Below are positions 8,653 through 22,631 of a stretch of 22,631 nt of DNA, piece after piece (positions within the stretch are counted from its first letter, which is position 1; every line of letters begins with the position of its first letter). A program made the position numbers and the translations under genes. Where the stretch lies: NCBI GenBank assembly GCA_038153405.1, contig JAYOYH010000061.1:1-22631 (forward strand), given 5' to 3'. The notes beneath the pieces are model-generated. The model saw only the letters and a program-made list of their open reading frames with translations. It was not told the origin of the DNA and made no database searches. The DNA is from Gemmatimonadota bacterium. GTDB taxonomy: Bacteria > Latescibacterota > UBA2968 > UBA8231.

Positions 8653-9615
8653 ATGCCCGTGCTGCAAAGCGAATCAATGGGCGATCCGATCGGCCAATCG
8701 GTCGTCGAACAGATCGGCAATACGCCCCTGCTGCGCCTGCGAGACGATGCCATTCCCCCCGGCGTAGAGGTCTATGCCAAATTGGAGTATTTCAATCCGG
8801 GTGGTTCGGTTAAGGACCGACCAGCGCGCCGCATGATCGAAGATGGTGAGCGCGAAGGTAAGTTGTTGCCGGGCAAAACCATTCTCGATTCGACCTCAGG
8901 TAATACGGGAATCGCCTACGCCATGATAGGCGCGGCCAAGGGCTTTCCCGTCAAACTGGCGATGCCGGCCAACGTGAGCCGCGAGCGCAAGGCGGTGCTG
9001 GCCGCCTACGGCGCGGAAGTCGTCTACACGGATCCCGGCGAACTGTCCGACGGCGCCATTCTCGAAGCGCGCCGCATATACGAGGAAAACCCGGACGCCT
9101 ATTTCAAGCCCGACCAGTACAATAATCCGTCAAATTGGCAGGCCCACTTTGATACGACGGCGCCGGAAATATGGCAGCAGACACAGGGCCGGGTAACGCA
9201 CTTTATCGCGACCATTGGTACGAGCGGAACCGTCATGGGCACGGGCCGGGGGCTAAAGCAGTTCAACGACGCCATCCAGATCATTGCCGCCGAGCCGGCC
9301 GACCCGTTCCACGGTATTGAGGGGCTCAAACACATGGAAAGTTCCATTGTGCCGGGCATTTACGACGAGTCGTTTCTCGACCACAAAATCGCTGTCGATA
9401 CGGAGGATGCCTACGACACGGCTCTGCGCTTGCCGCGCGAGCACGGGGTGCTGGTCGGTCAGTCGTCGGGTGCAGCCTATTGGTCGGCCATAGAGGTGGC
9501 ACGGCAGCTGAGTGAGGGCGTCGTCGTGACGATCTTTTGCGATGGGGGCGATAAATACATGAGCACGCCCATGTGGCAAATCGCTCTAGAAGACCACGTG
9601 CAGATAAAGAGATAG
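8653..9615 (+). CDS. cysM: PLP-dependent cysteine synthase, CysM-like (start uncertain: 8596, 8653 or 8677)
   Basis: IGNTPL, KLEYFNPGGSVKDR (PLP lysine), STSGNTG, QYNNPSN, IGTSGTVMG, GIEGLKHM (CysM-type loop rather than CysK IQGIGAGF) and GQSSGA. Lies next to JAMM and Ubl genes. Confidence 0.85.
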   Translation: MPVLQSESMGDPIGQSVVEQIGNTPLLRLRDDAIPPGVEVYAKLEYFNPGGSVKDRPARRMIEDGEREGKLLPGKTILDSTSGNTGIAYAMIGAAKGFPVKLAMPANVSRERKAVLAAYGAEVVYTDPGELSDGAILEARRIYEENPDAYFKPDQYNNPSNWQAHFDTTAPEIWQQTQGRVTHFIATIGTSGTVMGTGRGLKQFNDAIQIIAAEPADPFHGIEGLKHMESSIVPGIYDESFLDHKIAVDTEDAYDTALRLPREHGVLVGQSSGAAYWSAIEVARQLSEGVVVTIFCDGGDKYMSTPMWQIALEDHVQIKR

Positions 9616-9625
9616 GGAGAGCGCC

Positions 9626-10129
9626 ATGACGACACTCGTCGTGAAACGAGCCGATTACGAACGCATTTGCACCCAGTCGCTCGATGAGTATGAGCAGGGG
9701 GAGTGCTGCGGCATGCTCACCTACGGTTCAGAGGGTCCGGCGGTCGAGGTGCACCCGTGCGAGAATATCCAGGGGGCGATGCATGAGAGCGATCCAGAGC
9801 AATATCCGCGCACCAACCTCAACGCCTACCTGATCGATCCCGGCGAGCAGCATCGCATCATCTCTGGGGCGGAAAAGCGCGGCGGCGGCATCGCCGGATT
9901 TTACCACTCGCACGTCGACTGCGATGCCTATTTTTCCGACGAGGACAAGGCCCAGGCCTGCGCCCTGTTCGGCGATGAGCCGACCTACCCCGATGCGCTC
10001 TACTTGGTCGTGTCCGTATACGGTCCGCGCTCTGCTTTGGAAGCGCCCGTGGTAAAGGGGCATAAGTGTTTTGCCTGGAGTGAAGACCGCGCCGACTTTG
10101 TCGAAGTCGCTGTGGAATTGGTCGACTGA
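9626..10129 (+). CDS. JAMM/MPN+ (M67) metallopeptidase, Mec-like
   Basis: ECCGML (catalytic Glu) and YHSHVDCDAYFSDED, matching HxH-x7-S-x2-D. GGGAG RBS. Confidence 0.9.
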   Translation: MTTLVVKRADYERICTQSLDEYEQGECCGMLTYGSEGPAVEVHPCENIQGAMHESDPEQYPRTNLNAYLIDPGEQHRIISGAEKRGGGIAGFYHSHVDCDAYFSDEDKAQACALFGDEPTYPDALYLVVSVYGPRSALEAPVVKGHKCFAWSEDRADFVEVAVELVD

Positions 10130-10137
10130 GCTCGAAG

Positions 10138-11988
10138 GTGCGTATCCGCCGCAGGTGGGCTTTGCTGTTGGCGCTGTCGGCCGGCGTCGTCCAATGGCTA
10201 GGGGGGCAGGACGCATTTCACTACGACGATTTCCACTCCATAGTGCACAACCCGCACCTGCGTTCGCTGGAGAACGTCCCGCGTTTCTTTGGCGATCCGG
10301 CGCTTTTTTCCGCCGACGCCAAGCAGGCCATGTACCGGCCCGTCGTCCTGACCACTTATGCGCTCAACTATGCGCTGGACGGGCTCGAGCCGCGCTCCTA
10401 TCGCCTGTTTAATATTTTCGTGCATGCACTCAACGCCGTGCTCGTCGTGTATCTGGTGCATGCCCTTGCGCGTCTGCCTGCAATCGCCTGGACGGCGGCG
10501 CTATGCTTCGCCTTTCACCCGCTGTCCGTCGAGTCGGTGCAGTACATTAGCAGCCGCTCGGAATCGCTCATGGCGCTGGGTCTGCTATCCGCGCTGCTGT
10601 GCTATCAGCGCTGGCAGGCGGCAGGTGGGCTGCACTGGTATGGCCTATCTTTAGGGGCATTTGCCCTATCTATCCTGAGCAAGTCGGTCGGCTGCGTAGG
10701 GCTGCTGCTGCTGCCGCTGTGCGATTGGCTGCAGGGGCGCCCCATTGTGCACAGGGGGCGGCTCTTGGCATATGCACCCTTTCTGGTGCTGGTCGGGCTC
10801 TACGTATCGATTTCTCACCAGGTCGTGGGTAAGGCCATCGGCGCACCGGTCCGCTCCTACGACGTGCAGCTGTGGACGCAGCTCAAGGCGTGGATCTACT
10901 ACGCGTGGATGGGCATCATGCCGGCGCGGCTGAGCGTCGAGCACCAGTTTTTCACCTCGCTCTCCTTTATGGAGCCGGCGGTGTGGTGGGCGCTGCTGCT
11001 GGCTGCTTCGCTGCTTTGGCTGGGCGTTGTTGCGCGCCAGCGCCTGCTGGTCTTTGCCATCGCGTGGTGCGCCCTTGCGCTGCTGCCTGCCTCGGTGGTG
11101 CCCCTGATCGTCCTGGTCAACGAGCACCGCCTGTACCTGGCCCTGGTAGGTGGGGGTATGGCGCTGGGATGGCTGGTCAATGCGGTTTATGCCAATGCGC
11201 CGAGGGTGGCTCTCAGCAGCGCGGCTGTTTATACTTTGTTATTGATCATAATGGCCTATGGCCGCGCCCAAGTTTGGCGCAGTGAAGAGGTCCTGTGGGA
11301 CGACGCGGCATCCAAGGCGCCGGGCATGCTCAAACCGCACCTGCGTTTGGGGGATGCGCTAGTCGGAGTGGGTGCGTACGAGCGCGCCGAAGCGGCCTAT
11401 GGCCGCGCGCTGCAGCTGCGTACTCAACATCCGGCTGCGCGCAATAATCTGGGCCTCCTCTACATGCGTCAGGGGCGTTTCGACGAAGCTGAGGTGCAGT
11501 TTCGCACGCTTTTAGACGTTTCGCCCGACATTGTGCAGGCGCGACTAAATTGGGCGCTGCTGCTGCTGCGCAGGGGCGCTTGGCGCGAAGCCGAGGCGGC
11601 CTACGAGGAAGCGCTACGCTACGGCGATACCGGCGGCGACGCGCAGAAAAAATTGGGTTATATCGCGCTGCACCACCGCTCAGATAGCCAGCGCGCGGTG
11701 GGCTTTCTGAGTGCCGGGTTGGCCCTACACCCCGATGCGCCGACCTGGACGGCCCTCGGCGTGGCTCTGCGCAGCGGGGGGGAAAATGGACGGGCCGAAG
11801 CGGCCTATCGCGCGGCGTTGGCCCTCGACGGGCAGAGCGCGGACACTTGGTTTAATTTGGCCAATTTATACCGCGATACAGATCGGCTAGACCTGGCGCG
11901 CGATGCCTATCGCCGCGTCGCCGAGGCCGCCGGCCATACGCTGGTCCAACGAGCCGTACAGGAACTGCAACTACTCACGCCACAATAG
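10138..11988 (+). CDS. TMTC-like GT-C membrane glycosyltransferase with C-terminal TPRs (copy 1)
   Basis: FHYDD...IVHNP, MYRP, FHPLSVESVQYISSRSE and NEHRLYL in a multi-TM region, then W.SE..LW and TPR repeats (ARNNLGLLY, TWFNLANLY). GTG start. Confidence 0.82.
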   Translation: MRIRRRWALLLALSAGVVQWLGGQDAFHYDDFHSIVHNPHLRSLENVPRFFGDPALFSADAKQAMYRPVVLTTYALNYALDGLEPRSYRLFNIFVHALNAVLVVYLVHALARLPAIAWTAALCFAFHPLSVESVQYISSRSESLMALGLLSALLCYQRWQAAGGLHWYGLSLGAFALSILSKSVGCVGLLLLPLCDWLQGRPIVHRGRLLAYAPFLVLVGLYVSISHQVVGKAIGAPVRSYDVQLWTQLKAWIYYAWMGIMPARLSVEHQFFTSLSFMEPAVWWALLLAASLLWLGVVARQRLLVFAIAWCALALLPASVVPLIVLVNEHRLYLALVGGGMALGWLVNAVYANAPRVALSSAAVYTLLLIIMAYGRAQVWRSEEVLWDDAASKAPGMLKPHLRLGDALVGVGAYERAEAAYGRALQLRTQHPAARNNLGLLYMRQGRFDEAEVQFRTLLDVSPDIVQARLNWALLLLRRGAWREAEAAYEEALRYGDTGGDAQKKLGYIALHHRSDSQRAVGFLSAGLALHPDAPTWTALGVALRSGGENGRAEAAYRAALALDGQSADTWFNLANLYRDTDRLDLARDAYRRVAEAAGHTLVQRAVQELQLLTPQ

Positions 11989-11997
11989 GAGGCAATA

Positions 11998-12276
11998 ATG
12001 GCTGTAACTGTCAATATTCCAACGCCATTGCGCAAACTGACGAACAACGAATCAGAGGTGTCTTTGGAGGCTGGTTCGGTTAGCGAACTCGTCGATAACC
12101 TCGAGGCGGCCTACCATGGCATCGCCGAAAAGCTGCTCGACGATAAGGGTGAGATTCGCCGCTATGTCAACGTGTTTGTCAACGACGAGGACATTCGCTT
12201 TCTCGACGGTAAGGCAACGGCACTGAAAGACGGCGACAATATATCAATCGTACCGGCCATCGCCGGCGGTTGTTGA
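11998..12276 (+). CDS. Ubiquitin-like sulfur carrier (MoaD/ThiS/CysO family) ending in GG-C
   Basis: VNIPTPLRKLT...RRYVNVFVNDEDIRFLDGKATALKDGDNISIVPAIAGGC. GGAGG RBS overlaps the upstream stop. Confidence 0.93.
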   Translation: MAVTVNIPTPLRKLTNNESEVSLEAGSVSELVDNLEAAYHGIAEKLLDDKGEIRRYVNVFVNDEDIRFLDGKATALKDGDNISIVPAIAGGC

Positions 12277-12297
12277 GCGCGATACCCAACGCCTTTA

Positions 12298-12340
12298 GTG
12301 GGGGCCGTTCGGCGCGCTGTCGTCCGGCCCCCATTCCTTT
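12298..12340 (+). terminator. GC-rich intercistronic hairpin (weak terminator or mRNA stabiliser)
   Basis: GTGGGGGCCG (12298-12307) pairs with CGGCCCCCAT (12325-12334), followed by TCCTTT. Confidence 0.45.
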
Positions 12341-12352
12341 AATGCCGCATAC

Positions 12353-14338
12353 ATGAACGTGCGCTCGGAGTGGTTCGTGGCGACGGCCCTGCTGGGCTCG
12401 GTGCTCCTTTTCGCCTACGGCAATTCGTTCGACAATGGGTTTCACTACGATGACTTCCACTCGTTGGTCGACAACCCGCACGTGCGTTCGCTTGATAACT
12501 GGCGCGCCTTTCTCAGCGATCCCACCGCATTTTCCTCCATGCCCGACCGGGCGATGTACCGCCCGTTGGTGCTCTTTAGCTACGCCTTTAACTATCGCCT
12601 AGACGGCTATGCCGTAGGCGGCTATCATCTGGTCAACTGGTTCGTCCACCTCGGCTCAGCGCTGGCCGTATGTGCGCTGGCGCGTGCGCTGACGGCCGGG
12701 GTCTGGGCGGCGCTGGCCGGTGCGCTGGTCTTTGCCCTGCATCCGCTGTGCAGTGAGCCGGTAAACTACATTAGCAGCCGCTCGGAATCGCTGTGTGCGC
12801 TCTTCTTCTTACTCGCGTTGATCGGCTATGTGCGCGGGCGCGGGGGCGATGGCCGCTGGCTCTTGTTGGGGTTGCTCTGCTTTGCACTGGCGCTATTGGC
12901 CAAGTCGGTGGCCTTAGTGCTGCCGCTGGCCCTGCTGTGGTACGAACTGGTCAACGGGCAGATGAGCAACGCCCTGCGCCAGCGCCGCCTCGTCGGCATA
13001 CACCTGGCGCACTGGCTGGTGGTAGTGTTCTACCTATTGCTGGCCCGCACGTGGCTGGGCGATTCGCTCGGCGAGCCGGTGCGTGCCTTTGATGTGCAGT
13101 GGATTACCCAGATCAAGGCCTTGGTCTATTACGCCTATCTGGCGCTTTTTCCGGTCCGGCTCAGCGTGGAGCAGCCCTTTTCCATATCGGAGAGTCTGTT
13201 GGACGGCGCAGTGCTGTGCGCGCTGGTGACCCTGTGTTCGCTGGCCTATTGCGCCCTGCGCGGTCGCGGCGCGGTGCTGCACATTCTCGGCTGGGCGCTG
13301 CTGCCGCTGCTGCCTTCTTCGCTGATGCCGCTCAATGTGTTGGTCAACGAGCATCGCATGTATCTGCCGTTGGCCCTGCTGTGCGTGGGACTAGCCTGCA
13401 CGGTCGACCGACTCATTGGCAGGCGCGCGGTGCTCGTGGCCGCGTGCGTGGGGCTGGTCGCCTTTGTCGGGATCAACCGATTGCGCAACGCCGATTGGTT
13501 GGACGAGCGCAGCCTGTGGCAGGATGCGGTAGAGAGGGCGCCCTTGGCCTACCGGGCGCATATGCATCTGGGCGAGGCGCTGGAACGGGCGGGGGAGCGC
13601 ACTTCGGCGCTGAAGCATTTCGAGCGCGCCGTTGAATGCGCGCCCGAAGCGGCCGAGCCGCACTACAATCTGGGCAACGCGCTGCGCGTTCGCGGGCGCT
13701 TAGAAGAGGCGCTGGAAGCCTACGGGCGCAGTCTGCAGGCGCGCGCTCACTTTGCCCCCGCGCTGCTCAACCGCGCTGCGCTCTTACAAGATCTGGGCCG
13801 CTACGACGGGGCGGAGGCGCTGCTGCGGCGCGGTTTGACTGAGGGCATCGGCGCGCGCTCGGAACTGCTGCGGCGCTTGGGCGTGCTCTACGGCAAGGGG
13901 GGGCGCTATGGACGGGCCGAGGAGGCGCTGCAGCAGGCGCTGCAGGCCGATCCGGCCCTAGTCGAAGCACAGTACAATCTGGGCAACGTATATTTTGAAG
14001 CAGGGCAGGTCGAGGCGGCTATGCGCACCTATGGGGCTGTTCTGGACAGGCGGCCCGCGCACGCCGGTGCGCGGCGAAATTGGGGTGAACACCTGCTGAA
14101 AACGGGCGAATATGAGCGAGCAAAGGCCCTTTTTTCCGAGGGCTTGCGCCTGCGGCCGGACGAGGTGATTTTTCACTACGGCGCGGCGCGGGCCTACGAA
14201 GCGCTCGGCCAAGGGCAGGCTGCGCTGATTAGCTATCGCCGCTTTGCTCAAGGGGCCGCTCTCGATGCGGCCGGACGGGCCGCCGTAGCGGCCCATATCG
14301 AGCGTTTAGAGCGCCAACTGCGCGGGGAGCAACAATGA
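12353..14338 (+). CDS. TMTC-like GT-C membrane glycosyltransferase with C-terminal TPRs (copy 2)
   Basis: NGFHYDD...DNP, MYRP, LHPLCSEPVNYISSRSE, NEHRMYLP and multiple TPRs (HYNLGNAL, QYNLGNVY). Stop overlaps the cysK start (ATGA). Confidence 0.84.
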   Translation: MNVRSEWFVATALLGSVLLFAYGNSFDNGFHYDDFHSLVDNPHVRSLDNWRAFLSDPTAFSSMPDRAMYRPLVLFSYAFNYRLDGYAVGGYHLVNWFVHLGSALAVCALARALTAGVWAALAGALVFALHPLCSEPVNYISSRSESLCALFFLLALIGYVRGRGGDGRWLLLGLLCFALALLAKSVALVLPLALLWYELVNGQMSNALRQRRLVGIHLAHWLVVVFYLLLARTWLGDSLGEPVRAFDVQWITQIKALVYYAYLALFPVRLSVEQPFSISESLLDGAVLCALVTLCSLAYCALRGRGAVLHILGWALLPLLPSSLMPLNVLVNEHRMYLPLALLCVGLACTVDRLIGRRAVLVAACVGLVAFVGINRLRNADWLDERSLWQDAVERAPLAYRAHMHLGEALERAGERTSALKHFERAVECAPEAAEPHYNLGNALRVRGRLEEALEAYGRSLQARAHFAPALLNRAALLQDLGRYDGAEALLRRGLTEGIGARSELLRRLGVLYGKGGRYGRAEEALQQALQADPALVEAQYNLGNVYFEAGQVEAAMRTYGAVLDRRPAHAGARRNWGEHLLKTGEYERAKALFSEGLRLRPDEVIFHYGAARAYEALGQGQAALISYRRFAQGAALDAAGRAAVAAHIERLERQLRGEQQ

Positions 14339-15252
14339 GAAAAGCCAATAGCGTACTCGAACTGATTGGAGCCACGCCCATCGTGCGCTTAGGGCGGGTG
14401 GCCGACGAGGGGATGGCCGAAGTGTGGGGCAAATTGGAGTCGGCCAATCCGGGGGGCAGCGTCAAAGACCGAATCGCCCTAGCTATGATCGAAGCGGCCG
14501 AGCGCGAAGGGCTACTCAAGCCAGGCGGCACGATTGTTGAGCCGACCAGCGGCAATACCGGCATTGGCTTGGCCATGGTGGCCGCCTACAAGGGCTATCG
14601 GCTCATCGTCACGATGTTTGATACGGCCAGCCGAGAGCGGCGCCTGCAGATGCAGGCCTACGGCGCCGAAGTGGTGCTGACACCAGCAGCCGAAGGCATG
14701 CGCGGGGCGATTGAACGCGCGATCGAACTAAAGCAAAAAAACCCAGAATATTTTCTGCCGCAACAATTTATGAATCCGGCTAATCCCGAGATGCACCGCC
14801 GCACTACCGGCAGCGAGATCCTCTCGCAGTTGGGCGAGGGCATCGACGCGTTTGTCGCTGGCGTCGGCACGGGAGGATCTGTTACCGGCGTGGGCGAAGT
14901 GCTCAAAGAGCGCATTCCGACCGTGCGCATCATTGCTATCGAACCGGCCGGATCGCCCGTCCTGTCGGGCGGCGAGCCGGGTTTCAGTTATATAGAGGGG
15001 ATTGGCGCGGGTTTTGTGCCGGAGATATTGAATCGCGAAGTCGTCGACGAGGTGCGGGCTATCGAGGACGATGAGGCTTACGAAATGGCGCGGCGGTTGG
15101 CGCGCGAAGAGGGTCTGCTGGTCGGCATTTCGGCCGGAGCTAATGCGGCTAAAGCCGTCGAAGTAGCGCGCGAATTGGGTCCGGGGCACGTCGTAGTCAC
15201 CATTCTGTGCGACAGCGGTCTGCGCTATCTGAGCACGCGCGCCTTCGAATAG
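14335..15252 (+). CDS. cysK: Cysteine synthase A (O-acetylserine sulfhydrylase)
   Basis: KLESANPGGSVKDR, EPTSGNTGIGLA, QQFMNPAN, GVGTGGSVTG, IEGIGAGFVP and D.G.RYLST. Confidence 0.9.
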   Translation: MRKANSVLELIGATPIVRLGRVADEGMAEVWGKLESANPGGSVKDRIALAMIEAAEREGLLKPGGTIVEPTSGNTGIGLAMVAAYKGYRLIVTMFDTASRERRLQMQAYGAEVVLTPAAEGMRGAIERAIELKQKNPEYFLPQQFMNPANPEMHRRTTGSEILSQLGEGIDAFVAGVGTGGSVTGVGEVLKERIPTVRIIAIEPAGSPVLSGGEPGFSYIEGIGAGFVPEILNREVVDEVRAIEDDEAYEMARRLAREEGLLVGISAGANAAKAVEVARELGPGHVVVTILCDSGLRYLSTRAFE

Positions 15253-15294: not shown

Positions 15295-15330
15295 AAGCGC
15301 CCGCTTTCCGGTGGGGAAGGCGGGCGCTTT
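15295..15330. terminator. Bidirectional terminator between convergent cysK and rpsT
   Basis: AAGCGCCCGCTTTCC (15295-15309) pairs with GGAAGGCGGGCGCTT (15315-15329). Confidence 0.75.
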
Positions 15331-15355
15331 GCCGTTGATAGGTGGAGACGGCGTC

Positions 15356-15610
15356 CTATTCCATGCCGCGCACAAAGTGGGTCAAACGCGACTTGTAGCG
15401 GGCGGCCGTGTTGCGGTGCAGGCGGCCTTTGCGCACTGTGCTGTCGACGACGGAGATGGCTTGGCTGAGGGCCGCTTCGGCCGTGCTGCGGTCCCCGGCA
15501 GAGCGCACCTTTTTAATGGCCGTGCGCATGCGAGAGGTGATGGCCTTGTTGCGCACCTGCGCCTTAAGGTTGTTGCGAAGTCTCTTCTTAGATGATTTCA
15601 GATTGGGCAC
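15356..15610 (-). CDS. rpsT: 30S ribosomal protein S20
   Basis: PNLKSSKKRLR...RNKAITSRMRTAIKKV...KGRLHRNTAARYKSRL. GTG start with GGAG RBS. Confidence 0.97.
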   Translation of the reverse strand: MPNLKSSKKRLRNNLKAQVRNKAITSRMRTAIKKVRSAGDRSTAEAALSQAISVVDSTVRKGRLHRNTAARYKSRLTHFVRGME

Positions 15611-15688
15611 TCTTGCACTCCTTTAACGAGGTTCAGGCAAAATATTCCAGCGTGTAAAGCGGTAGAATACCGCCCGTTTAAAATTTCA

Positions 15689-15701
15689 TAAGCTATTGTT
15701 A
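15689..15701 (-). promoter_or_regulatory. IHF-like binding site
   Basis: Minus strand TAACAATAGCTTA, one mismatch to WATCAANNNNTTR, in an AT-rich patch about 40 bp upstream of the sigma54 motif. Confidence 0.45.
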
Positions 15702-15742
15702 TTTCTTGGCCAGAGAGGGATGCAAACACCTTCCGTTTGCTC

Positions 15743-15758
15743 TGGCACGCCGCTTGCT
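15743..15758 (+). promoter_or_regulatory. Sigma54 (RpoN) -24/-12 promoter
   Basis: TGGCACGCCGCTTGCT matches TGGCACG-N4-TTGCW, giving a predicted start site near 15769. Confidence 0.8.
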
Positions 15759-15768
15759 AAAGTCTGTC

Positions 15769-15927
15769 CGACAAGTCAGTCCTACGGGACCGAGGGCGCC
15801 TTCGGATCGAGTGACCCCCAAGCGCTCGGCCGCAAGAGAGCGCCCGGCAATCGCAACCGGGACACGACGCAGTCTGAAAGCGGAAACGGGGTCGGCCACT
15901 CGCGGAAGGGGTGCCGGCCCCATTTTT
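15769..15927 (+). ncRNA. Candidate sigma54-dependent small RNA or attenuated leader, family not recognised
   Basis: Bounded by the sigma54 promoter and an intrinsic terminator. Contains consecutive hairpins GTCC-TACG-GGAC, GCGCTC-N10-GAGCGC and CCGG-N9-CCGG, with no credible ORF. Confidence 0.55.
15888..15927 (+). terminator. Intrinsic terminator
   Basis: GGGGTCGGC (15888-15896) pairs with GCCGGCCCC (15913-15921), followed by ATTTTT. Confidence 0.75.
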
Positions 15928-16160
15928 AACCTTATGGCGGAAACGAATCTCATTAAAATAATGGCCTCTCTGCTAATTTGCAAGGGTTCCGCACTGCACT
16001 TCCTTTCGCCTTGCGGATGGATCCATTCCATCCGATGGGTGCGTTGCTATGGGCACAGGTATTGGATCGCTTGGTTGGGGGATAGCCGATGGGAAAAATA
16101 TGTTGAAGTTTGAAGTTTGCCTGCCGATAAGTAGATGTAAGGATTCGAACGTCTGGAAAG

Positions 16161-16180
16161 GTGGACACGCACATGTCCAC
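16161..16180. promoter_or_regulatory. Palindromic candidate operator
   Basis: GTGGACA-N6-TGTCCAC perfect inverted repeat, 20 bp upstream of a TTGACG hexamer at 16201. Confidence 0.4.
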
Positions 16181-16432
16181 TATAAGCGAGTAAAAGAGAC
16201 TTGACGAAAAAAAATCACATGCGAATACCAACACCTAATTATAGGAGGGATGGCTCTAAGGAGGTAGAACGCTTTCTCAATCGTCTGAGGGAATCGGAGG
16301 TCCGTGGGGGCGGACGGCCGCTTTCTTCTTCCGCACTGAGTTGGCAGGTGACCGATAGGGAAATGGGTCGCAGCCGACGAGTTTGTTCCGCTTTCAGCAA
16401 ATCTAGTCGTGTCCATGGAAGGAGTTTCTAAC

Positions 16433-19400
16433 ATGAATTCAAAGCGCAATGCTTTTTGCTTGCTGCTGTTTGTTGTTCTGGTTGGTCTGGGGGGCACTGC
16501 CTTTGCCCAGCCGATCTTTGAAAACAACACGCCGACGGGTTTCTCGCCGTCGGACAGCACGCGTAAGTCGAGGTTTGTAACCGATACGGATATCACCGTA
16601 TTGGTCGACCTCAACGAGGCCGCTAACGCGACCTACCCCGTTATGGGTAATTTTCAAAAGGTCGAAAAGAGCGTGCCGTTTTACGCCGACGGCGATCGGG
16701 CCGGCTATATGTCGCAGGCCGTAGCCGTCGACGACAACGGCATCATCCACCGCGCTTGGGTGCAGCAGCGCGGGTTGGTGCGCAACGCCGTTTCGACCTC
16801 GTCACCGGCCTACGGCGTCGTCTACGCCAAGAGCTTTGACGGTGGTAAGACCTTTACCGACACAGTGTCCGTATCGGGCACTATGCGTTTCGATATGATT
16901 ACCCCGTCGGTCCAAATGAAGAGCGGTTTTTCTACGGTCGATATCGTTGTCGATAGTAAGGGCAATCCGCGCGTTTCTTATGCTATGGACTGGTCGGCTG
17001 ACGGTTTTACGAACGGCCATTCGCAGGCGGCTGCAGCCAGCGGCACGATCCGGGGTTTTGACGGCATCTTCTTCAACTACTCCAACGACGGTGGAAGCTC
17101 CTGGCTGCCGAGCAACAATACGGTGGTCCTAAACGATACGATTACCGTTGGTAGCCAACCTATCACCGCAGACTACCCTGGTCGCAATACGGCGTTCCCG
17201 CGTATGGCCATTACCGAGACGGACGATATTTTTATCGTTTACCAGCGCGGTTTCTTTGGGATGGGGTCTGCAACCAGCTCATCGACGCCCGATATCATGC
17301 TGACCAAGATGGACTCGGACAGCCTGTTGCTGGGTTCGGCGCAGCCGGTGAACCTAGGCAGCACGGGCAATCTGGGTAGCTTGGGTGGTGTGCGCCTGGA
17401 TATGGACGATATAACGGGCGTCTCGCCCGATATTGCCGTTGGCGATGACGACATATTGCACGTTACCTGGTATGCACCGTCGGCCACCTCTTCGCGTCGC
17501 ATCTACTATAAGTCGGTTCCAGCTCAAGACTGGAGCATTACGGGCGCACTGGGTTGGAACCAAGATGTTGCCGGTGCAACCGTGGGTACGTTTAATTCGG
17601 AGATTGGTAATTCAGCTACCGCTAACTTTGGCACGGATTTTGTTGCGGGTGGCACCGCTGGTCAAGCAAATAATGGTCCGTTAGGAATAGGGGGCTCAAC
17701 TTACATGGGCCATGGTATCGATCAGAAAATCCACCTTTTCCCGACCATTGTAATCGACCGCGAGCGCACGCCGGACCGCGTCTACGTGCTATGGAAGCAC
17801 ACGGATGCGACTAGTGCCACGCTAGGCAACGACGAAAATATTCGCTATAACACCTACACCTATGACGGTCGGGTCGGTGGTTCGGCCACTTGGGGTTCGG
17901 AGACGGACGCTTTTCCCGTGGGTGGTGCTTTGACAGGCTTTTACAGCGCGGACGGGGCCGGTCTGTTCCAAAACGGTGCCATTCAGCAGATCGAGAGCAA
18001 CTGGATCTTTGTCGACCGCGTCTCTGCAGTGATAGACTCTAGGATCCCCGGCGTGCGCGGTGATCTGCACATTGCATTTTCCGGTGGTTCTAGCGCTTCG
18101 ATAGTCAAAGCAGCCGCAGAAAGGTTCACTACTACTGGTGCGAATAAGCTCTACTATTCGCGTTTTAACGGCACGGAGTGGGAACTGCCGCAGGTGTTGG
18201 CCACAGCCGACAACACGGACGACGGCGTGCTGGCCAAGCACAAGCATCTCTTCGGAGTCGACTTGGCCATTCGCGAGGGCAATGAGAATATTTACATGAC
18301 GTTTGTCGGAGGATCGCCTACGACTGGCGAAGCTAGGAATGTTTTTGCTAATGGTGTTGCCATAACACAAACGACTGCTGGTATTGAAGATCACACTCCT
18401 GGCTTTGGTTATGCATCGCTCCACACGGGTGATACACAGCCCTTGCCGTACTTCAAGGTGCTGGGTCGCGTATCGACGTTTGAAGACCAGTCGATACCGG
18501 TGGGAGCGTATCAGTACCACCTGACCTACAATCCGGTAAACCCGCAGACCAGCGCGGTGTCTAATAACCTGGTGAGCGTCACGGTGGCCGATAACCAGAC
18601 GGGTGTCGGTATCGGTGGTGCCACGCCGTCCTCTTCGAAGGCGCCAGGCGGTTTTCTCACGGGTCAGTGGCGGTCCTTCGGGAATGGGGGTACGCTTGGT
18701 GTCTCCTCGCTGACCCCGAGCTCGGCAAGTGCCGTATACAAAGGCGCTTCGAGCCAGACCGAGGCACAAAACGACGCCGGTGTGTTCCAAGGTAAGACCG
18801 ACGACGATGGTTCGAGCGGTTTTGGCGAGTGGGGCGACAGCGGCGATAAGAAGGGGCTGTTGGTCAAGCTCAATATCTTGGGATCCGACTCGGCCAGCAA
18901 TGTGCAGCTGATTTACGCGAGCACGGCATCCAAGCAGATCAGCGGTTCGTCCAGTCAGCACATTGCACTAGCTGTTCAGGGTGCTAAGTTCAACGACGGT
19001 GGCGGCGCAGTTGCTGCAACCAGCACTCAGATGTACTCCTTTGTCCGGCCGATAACTGCTTCATCTACGGCGGCGGGGTTTGTTATTACCGAAGCCGGAA
19101 CCCTCCCCGGTGGTGCAGGCCGTTGGCCCGCCATGGGTTCGTACTTTATGATTGGTCCGGACATCGACATCGTCGCTGAGAACAAGGCGCCGTCGGTGGC
19201 GGTGGTTGCGCCCAATGCCAGCACGCTGGCGGGCGGCGCGTTTGCCAACGAGACCTTTGGCATTCAGTACGTGCTCTTCGACAGCGACGACAACGTAACC
19301 GATACCGATTCGGATACGCTGACGGCGGCGCTGTATGCCTATCCGGACAACGGTCTGCGCTCCGTGCAGGACATTCAGACCTTTGCCACGCTGATCGTCG

Positions 19401-22400
19401 ACGAACGCGACGCCACGGGCGCTACCAGGCGCGCGGCGGGCAATCCGGCGGCGACCAACGACTTTGTCGAAGGCCTGTCGGCGGGCAATACGCAGACCTA
19501 CAGCTGGGACAATCCGGGCACGGCCTATCAGAACGCCTTTGGCTGGGCGCCGGTAACCCGCATGCTGGACGGCACCTACTACATCTACATTGTCGCCGAC
19601 GACGGCGTCAACCCGGCCATTTACGCGGTGAGTAGCGGCGCCCTGCGCGTCCGCCACGTGCCGATTGTGCGCTCGGTGGCGCCGGTGGCGGCCGACACGG
19701 TAGATACGGGTGAGTACAGCAACCTGGCCAAGGCCAATCCGTATAAGATCAAGTTCACGGTGGTCGACTACGACGACAACGCGCAAGTGCGCCTGTTTTA
19801 CTCGACGTCGAACGCCCTTACGGCCTCTAACGTGACGGTGACGGGTAGCTACCCCAACCAGACGCTCGAACTGGCCGGTGCTTCGGCTATCCAGCTTTCG
19901 GATAGCCTGCGCACCGACGAGGATATCGAGTTCTTCTTTAACGTGGCGGCACAGGGGTCCACCCGCGACTCGGTCGTGGCCCAGGGCAACTACTTCATCT
20001 ACGCTGTAGCGGCCGATGAAGACACCTTCTCGATCGGCGTTTCGTCGAACGCGCTGGCGGTGCGCCATTCGCCCGCCTTCGAATTCACGGCGCCGATGAC
20101 GGGCATCACGCTGCCCCTCGATCCGTCGCAGCAGGATCGCTATACGATCGAATGGCAGCGCGGTCGCTCGGACAGGGACCTGGACGGCAATGCGATCATC
20201 TCGCTCTACTACACGGGCGTGGATCCGCAGTCTGTTAACTACTCGGGCACCGATTCGACGCGGCTGTTGGCTACGTCGGGCACGAATCCGGGGAGTGCGG
20301 TGCTGATCGCCGGCAATATTCGCGAGGACTTGGAAGGCGGCAACGACCAGTATGTCTGGAACTTCCGCAATCCGCCCGGCGCGCTGCCGAAGGTGCTCCG
20401 TCCAGTTGCGACGGGTACCAATCCGCATCCATATGCCGAGGTGACGGGCAATCCGGTCGATACGGCCTGGGTCTACGCCGTGCTGCACGATTCGCTGGGT
20501 AATACCCGCGTGCAGGCCGGTGGTTCGATCGTGCTGCGCTCTGGTGAGCAATATACCTTCCAGGAGACGCCGCGCGTCGTCATGAAGACGCCGCCGGCCG
20601 GTGGTCAGAAAATCGTCAACGGCGATATCGTCCGCCTCGAGTGGGACGCGTTCCTGATCGACGACGGCACGGGCACCGATGACGCCTACCTGCGCCTCTA
20701 CGCGGCGCCCAAGGGCAAGTACGCCACGCTTACGGCGCTGGAGTCCAATGCCAAGGGCCGCGGTGGAGCACAGGACGTCTATGTCATCAATAGCCTGACG
20801 GGTCAGGTCTCGGGTAGCAACGACACGGAGGAAGCCTACGATCCGCGCTTGAGCGTGCTGCGCGAGAGCGGTGATAACTTCCTGCTGTGGGATACCAAGA
20901 CCACGTCCTTTAAGATCCAGGGCACGCCGACGGAGTTCGATATCTTTATCGCCGGCAGCAAGGATCGTCGCTTTGGTTCGCCCGTCTACACGACGGTCAA
21001 TCCCAACGGGGATGGCACTACGTGGGAAGCGCGGATCGATTCGATTGCCTCGGGTATAGGCGTACAGGCGCAGAAGGCGGTGCTGTCAAAGGCCCCGGGT
21101 GCGCTGCGCGTGGAAGGCGCCGATCCGATCTATAGCATCGAGCTTGGACCGGGCACCATGTCGGCCAGCTCGGGCGATACACTGGAGATGGACGTGCTGG
21201 TTAACTCGCAGAACAGCTCGATCGACCTGATGGCGCTGCACTTGAACGTGCCGCGCAACTACTTCGAGGTCGTCGATATGAATGCGAGCGCAGCCGGCCT
21301 GCAGCCGTTTGCCGATTCGACGGGCGCCTTTAAGACGCCCTCGACCATCGCGCAGAACGACACCACGCAGGGCACGGACCAGTTTGTCAAGCTCAACTTC
21401 GTCGAGTCCATCATCAACGGCGAGGTAGTCGGCAACTCTACGGGCGATAGCTCGCAGGTAGCCGCTCGCCTCAAGCTGGTGGTCAAGCGTTTCTCCGGCG
21501 GTGCGCCGTTTGATACGCTGCTGGTCTGGTCGGCGGAGTCGGGTCGCCGCACGGCGTTCCGCCGCGGCACGACCGAGCTGGCTGCGCCGGCCCGCGAAGG
21601 GTTCATCACCCTGACGCCGGGTGCGCGCATCATCGCCACGGCGCCGCTCGAGGGCCGCTCGAACTACTCTGATACGCTGGATGTCCATCTGCGCAAGATT
21701 GGTTCGACGCACGATATTACGAATGCGAACTACATCGCAGCCAACGATATCACGCTCGATACGCTGAGCAGTGTGACGACGCTGACCATTAGCGGCGTCA
21801 CCGGCACCTTCGCCGCCGGTGAAACGGTGACGGGGGGAACCAGCGGTGCGACCGCTACCGTGTCCACGGTGGGTGGCGCAAGCCTGGACGTCGCGTCCGT
21901 CACCGGTACCTTTGCGGCGAGCGAAGCGCTCACCGGCGGCACCAGTGGCGCCACGGCGACCTACGTATCGACGGCAATTGGCAGCGTCGTGCTGGGTGAC
22001 TCGGTGCAGGTCGTCAGCGACGCCTTCGGTACCTTCTCGCTGACCGAGATACCCCCGGGTATCTACGAGATGACGGTGAAGGCCGACGGCTACGTCTCGG
22101 GTCGCACGGACACGCTCAACGTGTTCAACGGCCTGACGCTGACGCCGGATCCGACCTACGGTTCGGACGTGCTGGGCAACCTCTCGCCGGCTACGCCGCT
22201 GGGCTTCTTGCGCGGTGGTGATGCCACGGGCGACAATCAGGTCGACATCGCCGATGCCAACCTGATCTACAGCCTGTGGAACTTGACGCCGGCCAGCGGC
22301 AACTTTAGGCGCGCAGCCGATGTCAACGCCGACGGCGTGATCAACTCGCTGGATCTGGGCTTTGTCACCTCGAACTTCGGCAACGACGGCTACGGTGCAG

Positions 22401-22631
22401 CGCCTGTCTTTAAGCCCACGGGCGAAGACGGCGACAACGCCGCAGCGCAGGTCAAAGTCGAAGGCATCGAGGATGTCGAGGCCTGGTGGCCGGGTCGCGT
22501 CTTTGAGGTGACGGCACGCGTCGAGAATATGAGCGACGTCATGGCCTACGAGCTGGTGCTCGGCTACGATCCCGACCGGGTCAAGCTGCTGCCCAACGAG
22601 GCCGTGGTAGAAGGCAACGTCTTCGCCAACA
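16433..22631 (+). CDS. Giant secreted multidomain surface protein (Asp-box region, tandem beta-sandwich modules, cohesin-like, carboxypeptidase-regulatory-like, dockerin, cohesin-like); 3' truncated
   Basis: AAGGAG RBS, ATG at 16433 and signal peptide MNSKRNAFCLLLFVVLVGLGGTAFA. Manual translation stays open to the window end (2066 codons), which explains its absence from the ORF track. Motifs: SFDGGKTF, SNDGGSSW, GTFSLTEIPPGIYEMTVKADGY and GDATGDNQVDIADA...ADVNADGVINSLDL. Confidence 0.92.
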   Translation, partial: MNSKRNAFCLLLFVVLVGLGGTAFAQPIFENNTPTGFSPSDSTRKSRFVTDTDITVLVDLNEAANATYPVMGNFQKVEKSVPFYADGDRAGYMSQAVAVDDNGIIHRAWVQQRGLVRNAVSTSSPAYGVVYAKSFDGGKTFTDTVSVSGTMRFDMITPSVQMKSGFSTVDIVVDSKGNPRVSYAMDWSADGFTNGHSQAAAASGTIRGFDGIFFNYSNDGGSSWLPSNNTVVLNDTITVGSQPITADYPGRNTAFPRMAITETDDIFIVYQRGFFGMGSATSSSTPDIMLTKMDSDSLLLGSAQPVNLGSTGNLGSLGGVRLDMDDITGVSPDIAVGDDDILHVTWYAPSATSSRRIYYKSVPAQDWSITGALGWNQDVAGATVGTFNSEIGNSATANFGTDFVAGGTAGQANNGPLGIGGSTYMGHGIDQKIHLFPTIVIDRERTPDRVYVLWKHTDATSATLGNDENIRYNTYTYDGRVGGSATWGSETDAFPVGGALTGFYSADGAGLFQNGAIQQIESNWIFVDRVSAVIDSRIPGVRGDLHIAFSGGSSASIVKAAAERFTTTGANKLYYSRFNGTEWELPQVLATADNTDDGVLAKHKHLFGVDLAIREGNENIYMTFVGGSPTTGEARNVFANGVAITQTTAGIEDHTPGFGYASLHTGDTQPLPYFKVLGRVSTFEDQSIPVGAYQYHLTYNPVNPQTSAVSNNLVSVTVADNQTGVGIGGATPSSSKAPGGFLTGQWRSFGNGGTLGVSSLTPSSASAVYKGASSQTEAQNDAGVFQGKTDDDGSSGFGEWGDSGDKKGLLVKLNILGSDSASNVQLIYASTASKQISGSSSQHIALAVQGAKFNDGGGAVAATSTQMYSFVRPITASSTAAGFVITEAGTLPGGAGRWPAMGSYFMIGPDIDIVAENKAPSVAVVAPNASTLAGGAFANETFGIQYVLFDSDDNVTDTDSDTLTAALYAYPDNGLRSVQDIQTFATLIVDERDATGATRRAAGNPAATNDFVEGLSAGNTQTYSWDNPGTAYQNAFGWAPVTRMLDGTYYIYIVADDGVNPAIYAVSSGALRVRHVPIVRSVAPVAADTVDTGEYSNLAKANPYKIKFTVVDYDDNAQVRLFYSTSNALTASNVTVTGSYPNQTLELAGASAIQLSDSLRTDEDIEFFFNVAAQGSTRDSVVAQGNYFIYAVAADEDTFSIGVSSNALAVRHSPAFEFTAPMTGITLPLDPSQQDRYTIEWQRGRSDRDLDGNAIISLYYTGVDPQSVNYSGTDSTRLLATSGTNPGSAVLIAGNIREDLEGGNDQYVWNFRNPPGALPKVLRPVATGTNPHPYAEVTGNPVDTAWVYAVLHDSLGNTRVQAGGSIVLRSGEQYTFQETPRVVMKTPPAGGQKIVNGDIVRLEWDAFLIDDGTGTDDAYLRLYAAPKGKYATLTALESNAKGRGGAQDVYVINSLTGQVSGSNDTEEAYDPRLSVLRESGDNFLLWDTKTTSFKIQGTPTEFDIFIAGSKDRRFGSPVYTTVNPNGDGTTWEARIDSIASGIGVQAQKAVLSKAPGALRVEGADPIYSIELGPGTMSASSGDTLEMDVLVNSQNSSIDLMALHLNVPRNYFEVVDMNASAAGLQPFADSTGAFKTPSTIAQNDTTQGTDQFVKLNFVESIINGEVVGNSTGDSSQVAARLKLVVKRFSGGAPFDTLLVWSAESGRRTAFRRGTTELAAPAREGFITLTPGARIIATAPLEGRSNYSDTLDVHLRKIGSTHDITNANYIAANDITLDTLSSVTTLTISGVTGTFAAGETVTGGTSGATATVSTVGGASLDVASVTGTFAASEALTGGTSGATATYVSTAIGSVVLGDSVQVVSDAFGTFSLTEIPPGIYEMTVKADGYVSGRTDTLNVFNGLTLTPDPTYGSDVLGNLSPATPLGFLRGGDATGDNQVDIADANLIYSLWNLTPASGNFRRAADVNADGVINSLDLGFVTSNFGNDGYGAAPVFKPTGEDGDNAAAQVKVEGIEDVEAWWPGRVFEVTARVENMSDVMAYELVLGYDPDRVKLLPNEAVVEGNVFAN
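21797..21961 (+). repeat. Intragenic degenerate duplication, 102 nt (34 aa) period
   Basis: VTGTFAAGETVTGGTSGATAT (21797-21859) and VTGTFAASEALTGGTSGATAT (21899-21961). Confidence 0.85.

Follow-up and report, generated by a model that had tools for sequence, protein, structure and literature searches.

The window, meaning the whole stretch of 22,631 nucleotides analysed here, is contig C61 of the genome designated G000. Between the gene for ribosomal protein S20 (rpsT) and the gene of a giant secreted protein, it holds a small RNA gene preceded by a sigma54-type promoter. All promoters in this work were called by motif against consensus sequences and are predictions. The features of the region are the following:

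15356..15610, minus strand: rpsT (ribosomal protein S20; Pfam PF01649, E 1.8e-24)
15636..15648, no strand assigned: conserved upstream motif GGCAAAAnnTTCC, at -133 from the +1 of the RNA
15689..15701, minus strand: IHF-like site, one mismatch to the consensus
15743..15758, plus strand: sigma54 -24/-12 promoter motif (GG at 15744-45, GC at 15756-57; predicted +1 at 15769)
15769..15930, plus strand: small RNA made of a rod (15770-15874), a linker and a 3' hairpin; covariance-model match 15769-15931, with covariation and RNA-library contigs
15814..15822, plus strand: C-rich apical loop (C5 at 15815-15819), predicted kissing site A; a C-run of at least 3, predicted unpaired (>0.7), in 34/40 homologues
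15860..15868, plus strand: site B of the RNA, 3' strand of the closing helices; complement of 16406-16414
15874..15885, plus strand: site C of the RNA, near-invariant linker and predicted toehold; complement of 16386-16397
15888..15927, plus strand: 3' hairpin (stem 15888-15921) with T5 tail, 93.9% paired; terminator-like in the window genome
15955..15983, minus strand: sigma70-type promoter facing rpsT (-35 at 15983-78, -10 at 15960-55; predicted start about 15948)
16104..16130, plus strand: sigma28-type promoter of the giant gene, predicted start about 16138; conserved in orthologous loci
16302..16313, plus strand: leader hairpin with G-rich loop (16305-16310), in 32/32 full leaders; predicted partner of the C-rich loop
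16354..16364, plus strand: leader hairpin with ANGGAN hexaloop, putative CsrA-type site 1; 26/32 leaders match, and csrA is in the genome
16386..16397, plus strand: leader site C, also predicted anti-Shine-Dalgarno in the free leader
16406..16424, plus strand: leader site B (16406-14), ANGGAN hexaloop (16415-20) and Shine-Dalgarno region (16417-24); putative CsrA-type site 2
16433..22631, plus strand: gene of the giant secreted protein, predicted target; >2066 aa, cut by the contig end; dockerin PF00404, E 1.2e-8

At the promoter level, both the IHF-like site and the consensus -24/-12 box reported by a first-pass annotation of this DNA are present. A comparable -24/-12 box appeared in 34 of 20000 shuffles of the intergenic region, rpoN is encoded in the genome, and the predicted +1 falls 0-3 nt ahead of the first paired base in the homologues. 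IHF-like sites with no more than two mismatches to the consensus occur in 22 of 27 orthologous promoters versus 12.6 expected from shuffles. Further upstream, GGCAAAAnnTTCC is found at -119 to -144 in 23 of the 28 loci matched by the covariance model and is likely to be the site of a sigma54 enhancer-binding protein. When its profile was applied to 79 sigma54 boxes of the genome, the next-best scores belonged to a flagellin (18.6), a gene of the fli cluster (16.0) and a paralogous giant-protein gene (15.6), a score of at least 14 being reached by 0.3% of random upstream regions; the sigma54 promoters of flgB and flgF scored low (7.1 and 5.3). The small RNA is probably transcribed from a sigma54 promoter of the flagellar regulon.

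The homologues are predicted to fold into an unbranched rod, 100-123 nt long, that contains an A/C-rich bubble and is capped by a C-rich loop, followed by the near-invariant linker and the 3' hairpin. In an alignment of 40 distinct sequences fitted to the model, in which related genomes are not independent, 81.1% of 1574 cells are paired and 222 cells are altered on both sides; none of 500 shuffles was as high, and slid registers gave 35-46% paired. In the rpsT-adjacent regions of relatives, for which a covariation check had been proposed earlier, the promoter is conserved and the stems are conserved and covary. Support for the fold comes from this conservation and covariation and not from single-sequence stability, which is modest for the free window RNA (z -1.66). 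RNAalifold run on a sequence-only alignment recovered the 3' hairpin alone, and the rod emerged via per-sequence folds and the covariance model. Variants in P2 are G-U and never A-C, which identifies the plus strand as the selected one, and z is lower on that strand in 20 of 22 homologues. A structure of the minus strand, that of the rpsT leader, was rejected on this G-U polarity and on the z-scores, even though, judged by raw energy, the minus strand folds better in 21 of 22 rods.

This rod with its 3' hairpin takes the place of the stacked hairpins first described for the region. The cUACGg string does lie at 15779-15790, but its hairpin has a probability of 0.15 in the free RNA and CUACGG occurs in 8 of 40 homologues; in the same free ensemble, 15779-83 pairs with 15859-63 in a long-range helix at a probability of about 0.85. 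Likewise, CGCAA is present twice as reported, but both hairpins have a probability of 0.00 and only 2 of 40 homologues carry two CGCAA. The strong terminator holds for the window genome (15888-15921 stem, T5) and not for the homologues, of which 7/40 have at least five T within the 8 nt directly after the 3' stem and 33/40 have a weak tail.

Because the cUACGg and CGCAA hairpins stand outside the conserved fold, the suggestion of a protein sponge working through a repeated loop fails, the CGCAA loops being neither conserved nor folded. It is very improbable that the RNA is a protein-binding decoy of any kind, be it a sponge of the CsrA type or, as with 6S RNA, a mimic of an open promoter. CsrB/RsmZ sponges carry many single-stranded GGA loops, and here single-stranded GGA averages 0.7 per RNA and reaches at least two copies in 6 of 40 homologues only. 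The rod does have a central bubble, but it measures about 107 nt and has a short closing stem, and 6S RNA is a rod of about 180 nt with a long closing stem. A search with RF00013 found no 6S RNA in 61 class genomes, nor was one seen in the zapA-rny spacer, which would agree with a 6S-like role; this silence says little, since RF00013 finds only 4-5 of 14 control genomes. An identity with 6S RNA was rejected on rod length and on the missing match to that insensitive model. Moreover, the RNA is lost along with flagella, and its conserved bases are explained by the leader pairing described below. The genome has four ZapA-family genes above the Pfam cut-off (on C23, C2, C6 and C4), and its zapA-rny spacer of about 80 nt contains no 6S-like RNA.

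Homologues were first picked up by BLAST, similarity beginning at the sigma54 box, and a covariance model was built from 17 sequences. With the best ~20 candidates scored per genome, this model matched 28 of 132 class genomes and 27 of 151 phylum genomes, every one in a single family, f1, and none beyond it; each genome with a match carries one copy. The upstream DNA of rpsT, found in 54 of 61 genomes, was compared in 48 of them, six f2 genomes being left out, and the RNA gene and rpsT stand head-to-head at every RNA-bearing locus. Pattern scans gave 7 genome loci and 71 metagenome loci, the latter consisting of 24 homologues and 47 chance-like hits; the complete sigma54 box is present in 23 of the 24 homologues and rpsT lies upstream in 21, the remainder being cut by contig ends. 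Neither the window RNA nor 12 homologous loci matched any Rfam 15 family at gathering or E-value thresholds, the sole weak signal being narK (E 3.4) over the promoter, and ARAGORN found no tRNA or tmRNA in the element. The earlier failure to recognise a known RNA is thus borne out by the Rfam check it had called for, and the novelty stands. No description of the RNA came up in listings of the open-access literature, nor any Latescibacter paper with RNA or sigma54 terms. The element has its own promoter, called by motif, and a conserved structure outside coding sequence, and it is about 160 nt long, from the predicted +1 to an end near 15930. Promoter, upstream motif and RNA are conserved together, as expected of the new sigma54-driven structured RNA that had been postulated. 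By comparative sequence analysis, the element is a real, conserved and previously uncatalogued RNA that probably constitutes a new sRNA family. Two flagellated f3 genomes (G042, locus L048; G038, locus L061) also show a sigma54 box head-to-head with rpsT; the sequence after it gives no match to the model and is perhaps an RNA or leader that is either older or separate.

On the other side of the RNA, the next ATG is at 16433, at the distance of some 500 nt given for the next gene. NCBIfam provides no family name for the giant protein encoded there, and homologues of its N-terminal part are confined to f1 and absent from the flagellin-negative members of that family. Motifs similar to its sigma28-type promoter precede flagellins and flgM in the genome, fliA is present, and RNA-library contigs of the giant gene start at 16158, 16173 and 16202. 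A riboswitch or transcription attenuator, with a sole upstream promoter and a switchable terminator that gates the gene, was rejected, given that past the hairpin the giant gene is served by a sigma28-type promoter of its own. The idea of an attenuator for the giant gene is not supported as stated, given this conserved promoter; the link to the gene is nevertheless borne out by three complementary sites in its leader. The leader shows the features of CsrA-regulated leaders, namely ANGGAN hexaloops, one of them over the ribosome-binding site, together with csrA in the genome (predicted sites, with the motif as given in PMC4894983). The hexaloop next to the ribosome-binding site reads AUGGAA in 29 of 32 leaders and ACGGAA in the other 3, these leaders having been chosen by a pattern that spans the same stretch. 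In the free leader, site C is predicted to pair with the Shine-Dalgarno octamer by a mean of 3.3 bp, an anti-Shine-Dalgarno arrangement of the GlmZ type. The 5' half of the leader (16138-16300 and its orthologues) is variable and keeps an AGGAGG-type motif and small hairpins. Elsewhere in the genome (C9, 78106-93809), divergent sigma54 boxes with a GGCAAAAnnTTCC-type motif in common precede the genes of two giant-protein paralogues and of a third large secreted protein.

The occurrence of the RNA was compared with that of flagella in the 31 f1 genomes in which rpsT was found. All 22 flagellin-positive genomes carry the RNA, whole in 18, cut by contig ends in two, split by an insertion sequence in G018 and with degenerate promoter and hairpin in G033. 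Among the nine flagellin-negative genomes it is absent from seven, a remnant in G025 and reduced to a kept rod in G008, and these same nine lack csrA and the giant-protein family; genera g10, g14 and g18 each include both states. Outside f1, six flagellated genomes yielded neither RNA nor giant gene in the same searches, so that within flagellated f1 the RNA tracks the target family. In G018 (C105; L059/L190) the RNA is interrupted between sites B and C by an insertion sequence that carries a transposase and shows an 8-bp target duplication, and similarity in the giant gene ends at residue 203. The RNA is kept without an adjacent target leader and gene in G126 (L192), G033 (L103), G008 (L105) and L189, with which L150 is grouped; the G126 RNA has an apical insertion, and in G008 an otherwise invariant C is changed and the 3' hairpin differs. 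Such persistence may reflect delayed decay or an additional function. The giant-protein family was found in flagellin-positive f1 genomes only. As for flagella themselves, the window genome holds complete-looking flagellar clusters with fliW-csrA (C1, 160974-188840, and C53), 9 flagellin-family matches, a FlgM with two domain matches, and flagellin promoters of both sigma54 and sigma28 type.

The leader carries complements of the three most conserved parts of the RNA, namely the G-rich loop, a 12-mer (16386-16397) and a 9-mer (16406-16414), the last ending beside the Shine-Dalgarno sequence and the CsrA-type hexaloop. The 45 loci comprise 32 with full leaders, 8 cut short, 4 without target (G008, G033, G126, L189) and G127, which departs from the pattern by one site-B mismatch. 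Over 22 distinct RNA/leader pairs, sites B and C are canonical in 454 of 462 cells (198/198 in site B, 256/264 in site C), with 21 G-U and no A-C. Cognate partners form 465 Watson-Crick pairs against 438.7 +/- 5.2 after shuffling, and none of 5000 shuffles reached the cognate value; invariant columns are partly circular here through the anchoring of the pattern, variable columns are not, and related genomes are non-independent. On a protein tree of 21 rows, read by eye and with four forks open, about seven separate change events fall on six positions, some via G-U sister states: G-C at site B position 7 arose twice, each time with a G-U sister, A-U at site C position 12 arose twice, and further changes affect three other duplex positions and the kissing loop. 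In the latter, five leaders of genus-g13 type read UAGGGG where their RNA loop is CCCU, so that the unpaired C-rich loop and the G-rich mRNA loop are linked by a prediction and one compensatory change. The RNA has the conserved, compensated complementarity to an mRNA that characterises base-pairing sRNAs, and a functional pairing with the leader of its neighbour is held with high confidence.

These matching stretches might alternatively be DNA inverted repeats of an invertible promoter segment, a proposal that is scarcely credible. They are indeed inverted, about 500 bp apart and flank two promoters, but their spacers differ (5 vs 8 nt), 21 mismatches read G-T on one strand where none reads A-C, and a single orientation is shared by the 32 full loci.

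The two-part leader site occurs once per genome. The giant gene lies outside the top 12 by raw duplex energy, and it comes first by ensemble energy among the 30 best raw-duplex candidates from 3874 start regions, with -25.7 kcal/mol in G000 compared with -19.6 for the next of the 30 and -7.6 +/- 2.9 for 120 random genes. Binding ranges from -9.7 to -26.6 kcal/mol over the 32 RNA/leader pairs, the weakest value belonging to G019, with two site-C mismatches; the leader UUU is retained where the RNA partner mismatches (G003, G007). The giant dockerin-protein gene is likely, from complementarity and its covariation, to be the target of the RNA. The genome-wide scan of start regions found no flagellar target, and the leaders of flgM (rank 2871 of 3870), fliS and flagellin were unsupported as targets.

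Expression data come from 8 of 20 RNA-library runs listed, as contigs without strand and with no true DNA control. Two runs from two studies (X2, X3) each provide a contig that matches the window exactly, 15781-15930 and 15779-15930, with no cover until 16158 and 16173, and these common ends at 15930 are a weak hint of a discrete RNA, since without strand they could also mark the 5' end of the rpsT leader. To these contigs, which bear on the transcriptome check put forward by the first-pass annotation, must be opposed a relative's contig in run X1 that bridges 15885 to 16091, and the lack of RNA cover from the own lineage in 5 of the 8 runs (X4, X7, X8, X9, X16).

The bridging contig bears on a different reading, in which the RNA is mainly the 5' domain of a leader of about 660 nt and sigma54 read-through lets it pair in cis; the early isoform would thereby escape the anti-Shine-Dalgarno and CsrA block that holds the shorter sigma28 isoform. 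In keeping with it, RNA and target are always adjacent, few homologues have a strong T tail, and sites B and C pair in both the minimum-free-energy and the centroid folds of 15769-16460 (692 nt). The path, however, contains a convergent sigma70-type promoter and a spacer that shows no conservation and differs in length between loci. The 3' hairpin is itself conserved and covaries, and in two studies the contigs end at 15930, cover being absent up to 16157. Owing to the weak T tail and to the pairings shared with the 692-nt read-through fold, the cis mode keeps some probability, while being unlikely.

The convergent promoter also places the RNA opposite rpsT. In 20 of the 22 loci that carry the RNA, the top sigma70-type site is found past it, and the same motif stands 29-160 nt from rpsT in all 8 loci without intact RNA; with the rpsT promoter beyond it, the RNA is antisense to a predicted 340-nt rpsT leader. 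It might then act mainly on rpsT, sigma54 transcription colliding with or pairing antisense to this leader and lowering S20 during flagellar assembly. The face-to-face promoters with full overlap, a contig (15529-15841, X1) that joins rpsT to the RNA region, and the action of E. coli flagellar sRNAs on ribosomal-protein mRNAs, according to PMC10578931, would agree with such a role. Nevertheless, it is highly improbable as the main one: the covarying complements in the downstream leader would go unexplained, and cis-antisense pairing requires no sequence conservation. Interference with rpsT may be a side effect of the RNA.

The reading preferred here is that the RNA pairs with the leader as a separate sRNA and turns translation of the giant gene on, to which a probability of roughly 0.45 is given. 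In this scheme, the activator of some flagellar sigma54 promoters would also fire the RNA promoter, and the C-rich apical loop would form a kissing contact with the G-rich loop of the leader, some 130 nt ahead of the start codon. Site C, the single-stranded linker, would nucleate a duplex and displace the RNA's own 5' strand from site B; the freed strand could form a local hairpin in 13 of 32 homologues, which in the window would be the cUACGg hairpin. The duplex would take both leader segments able to pair with the Shine-Dalgarno region, bury the GGA of the CsrA-type loop and halt before the AGGAG core, so that good translation of the sigma28 mRNA would require activity of both sigma54 and sigma28. 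In the unbound leader, site C is predicted to be able to pair with the Shine-Dalgarno region while site B closes the hexaloop.

The same RNA with the same three-site pairing might instead repress, which is judged less probable and, taken alone, somewhat unlikely. In this reading the duplex borders the ribosome-binding site and enters it in part, the C-rich strand of the bubble can reach GG pairs of the Shine-Dalgarno region, and RNase III may be invited; the sigma28-driven copy would be shut off during sigma54 activity, when the paralogues under sigma54 control are made. Predicted duplexes do extend onto UGG and often onto the second GG, sigma54 boxes lie directly upstream at two paralogue loci, and an imperfect duplex at the ribosome-binding site with a C-rich loop-loop contact is the topology of coa repression by RNAIII (PMC2837412). 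Energetic calculations depend on the window: from -75 to +24, binding eases the opening of AGGAG in 15 of 28 cases, hinders it in 6 and buries GGA in 23, which favours an open core, and from -150 to +30, the region from octamer to start is easier to open in 10 of 32 and harder in 17 of 32. Occlusion in the free leader is about that of ordinary genes (3.2 vs 3.1 kcal/mol). The duplex reaches -19, with marginal extension to about -15, positions that fall inside the typical 30S footprint. Activation is preferred because the approximately 21 conserved RNA/leader pairs stop at the edge of the Shine-Dalgarno sequence, no conserved complement of its AGGAG core being found beside them, and because a read-through isoform makes sense only if translated. 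The split RNA and broken target gene of G018 fit the loss of an activator at least as well as that of a repressor. Altogether, activation, whether in trans or by cis read-through, is the probable direction of control.

GlmZ-type activators depend on Hfq, and Hfq (PF17209) was not found in the window genome, which is 93% complete. In Enterobacteriaceae, GlmZ and GlmY have sigma54 promoters with IHF and activator sites more than 100 bp upstream, and GlmZ activates glmS by pairing with the stem that hides the Shine-Dalgarno sequence, an anti-antisense mechanism (PMC4152352). The RNA described here shares with that account the promoter type and, by prediction, the anti-antisense geometry, and differs from GlmZ/GlmY in having no Rfam similarity, an adjacent target, three pairing sites including a predicted kiss, and a flagellar instead of an amino-sugar context. 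In Staphylococcus aureus, RNAIII acts on coa and rot by contacts between C-rich loops and G-rich mRNA loops plus an imperfect duplex near the ribosome-binding site (PMC2837412). Pairing topology and surface or secreted protein targets are common to both, although RNAIII covers the Shine-Dalgarno sequence and represses many targets, whereas the RNA here stops at its edge and has one evident target; its kiss lies upstream of the ribosome-binding site, and there is no sequence relation. In Campylobacter, RpoN-dependent sRNA control, represented by FlmE (CJnc230) and FlmR, acts on the sigma28 tier of a flagellar cascade that CsrA-FliW is also part of, FlmE being processed from the flgE mRNA and repressing flgM (PMC11187230). 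The position in the cascade is alike, and the present RNA differs by its own promoter at rpsT and by flgM not being a predicted target. It resembles GlmZ, RNAIII and FlmE in parts but is a member of none of these families.

The closest counterpart of the leader is the Campylobacter flaA 5'UTR, a sigma28 leader controlled by CsrA-FliW with two ANGGA hexaloops, the second over the ribosome-binding site (PMC4894983). As in that case, csrA and a fliW-like gene are found in the flagellar cluster of the window genome; the hexaloops are about 52 nt apart here compared with the 21 stated there for flaA, in a leader of about 295 nt, and unlike flaA a dedicated pairing RNA overlaps the CsrA-type site proximal to the ribosome-binding site. 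MotR and FliX of E. coli are a loose precedent for the rpsT neighbourhood: they are flagellar sRNAs tied to ribosomal-protein mRNAs, sigma28-dependent and UTR-derived, and pair in trans with coding regions of the S10 operon (PMC10578931), while the rpsT link here consists of antisense overlap only.

The locus provides an sRNA-target pair in an uncultured family whose target was read from covariation between two RNAs, and such a covarying pair lends itself to a clean test by compensatory mutations, either in E. coli or in vitro. Should the RNA indeed activate, a pairing RNA would override a CsrA site and join the sigma54 and sigma28 flagellar tiers in a genome where Hfq was not found. Promoter motifs and joint loss tie dockerin proteins of about 2000 residues to the flagellar regulon. 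A bolder proposal, which is doubtful, sees in these 820 bp a three-sigma-factor switch: a sigma54 RNA, antisense within the sigma70 rpsT leader, would kiss a sigma28 mRNA and evict CsrA from its ribosome-binding site, forming an AND gate of the middle and late flagellar tiers that bypasses FliW, and the giant dockerin proteins would belong to a flagellum-linked surface structure and not to a cellulosome.

Two observations concern the region on the far side of rpsT. A hairpin at 15296-15331, with T-runs on both sides, lies between rpsT and a cysteine-synthase-like gene converging on it and is likely a bidirectional terminator. The stretch 8653-15252 of the window interleaves two genes that we take, from their motifs, to be cysteine-synthase-like with those of a JAB-domain protein, a ThiS/MoaD-like sulfur carrier and two membrane TPR proteins, and represents a CysM/CysO/Mec-like sulfur-carrier set.
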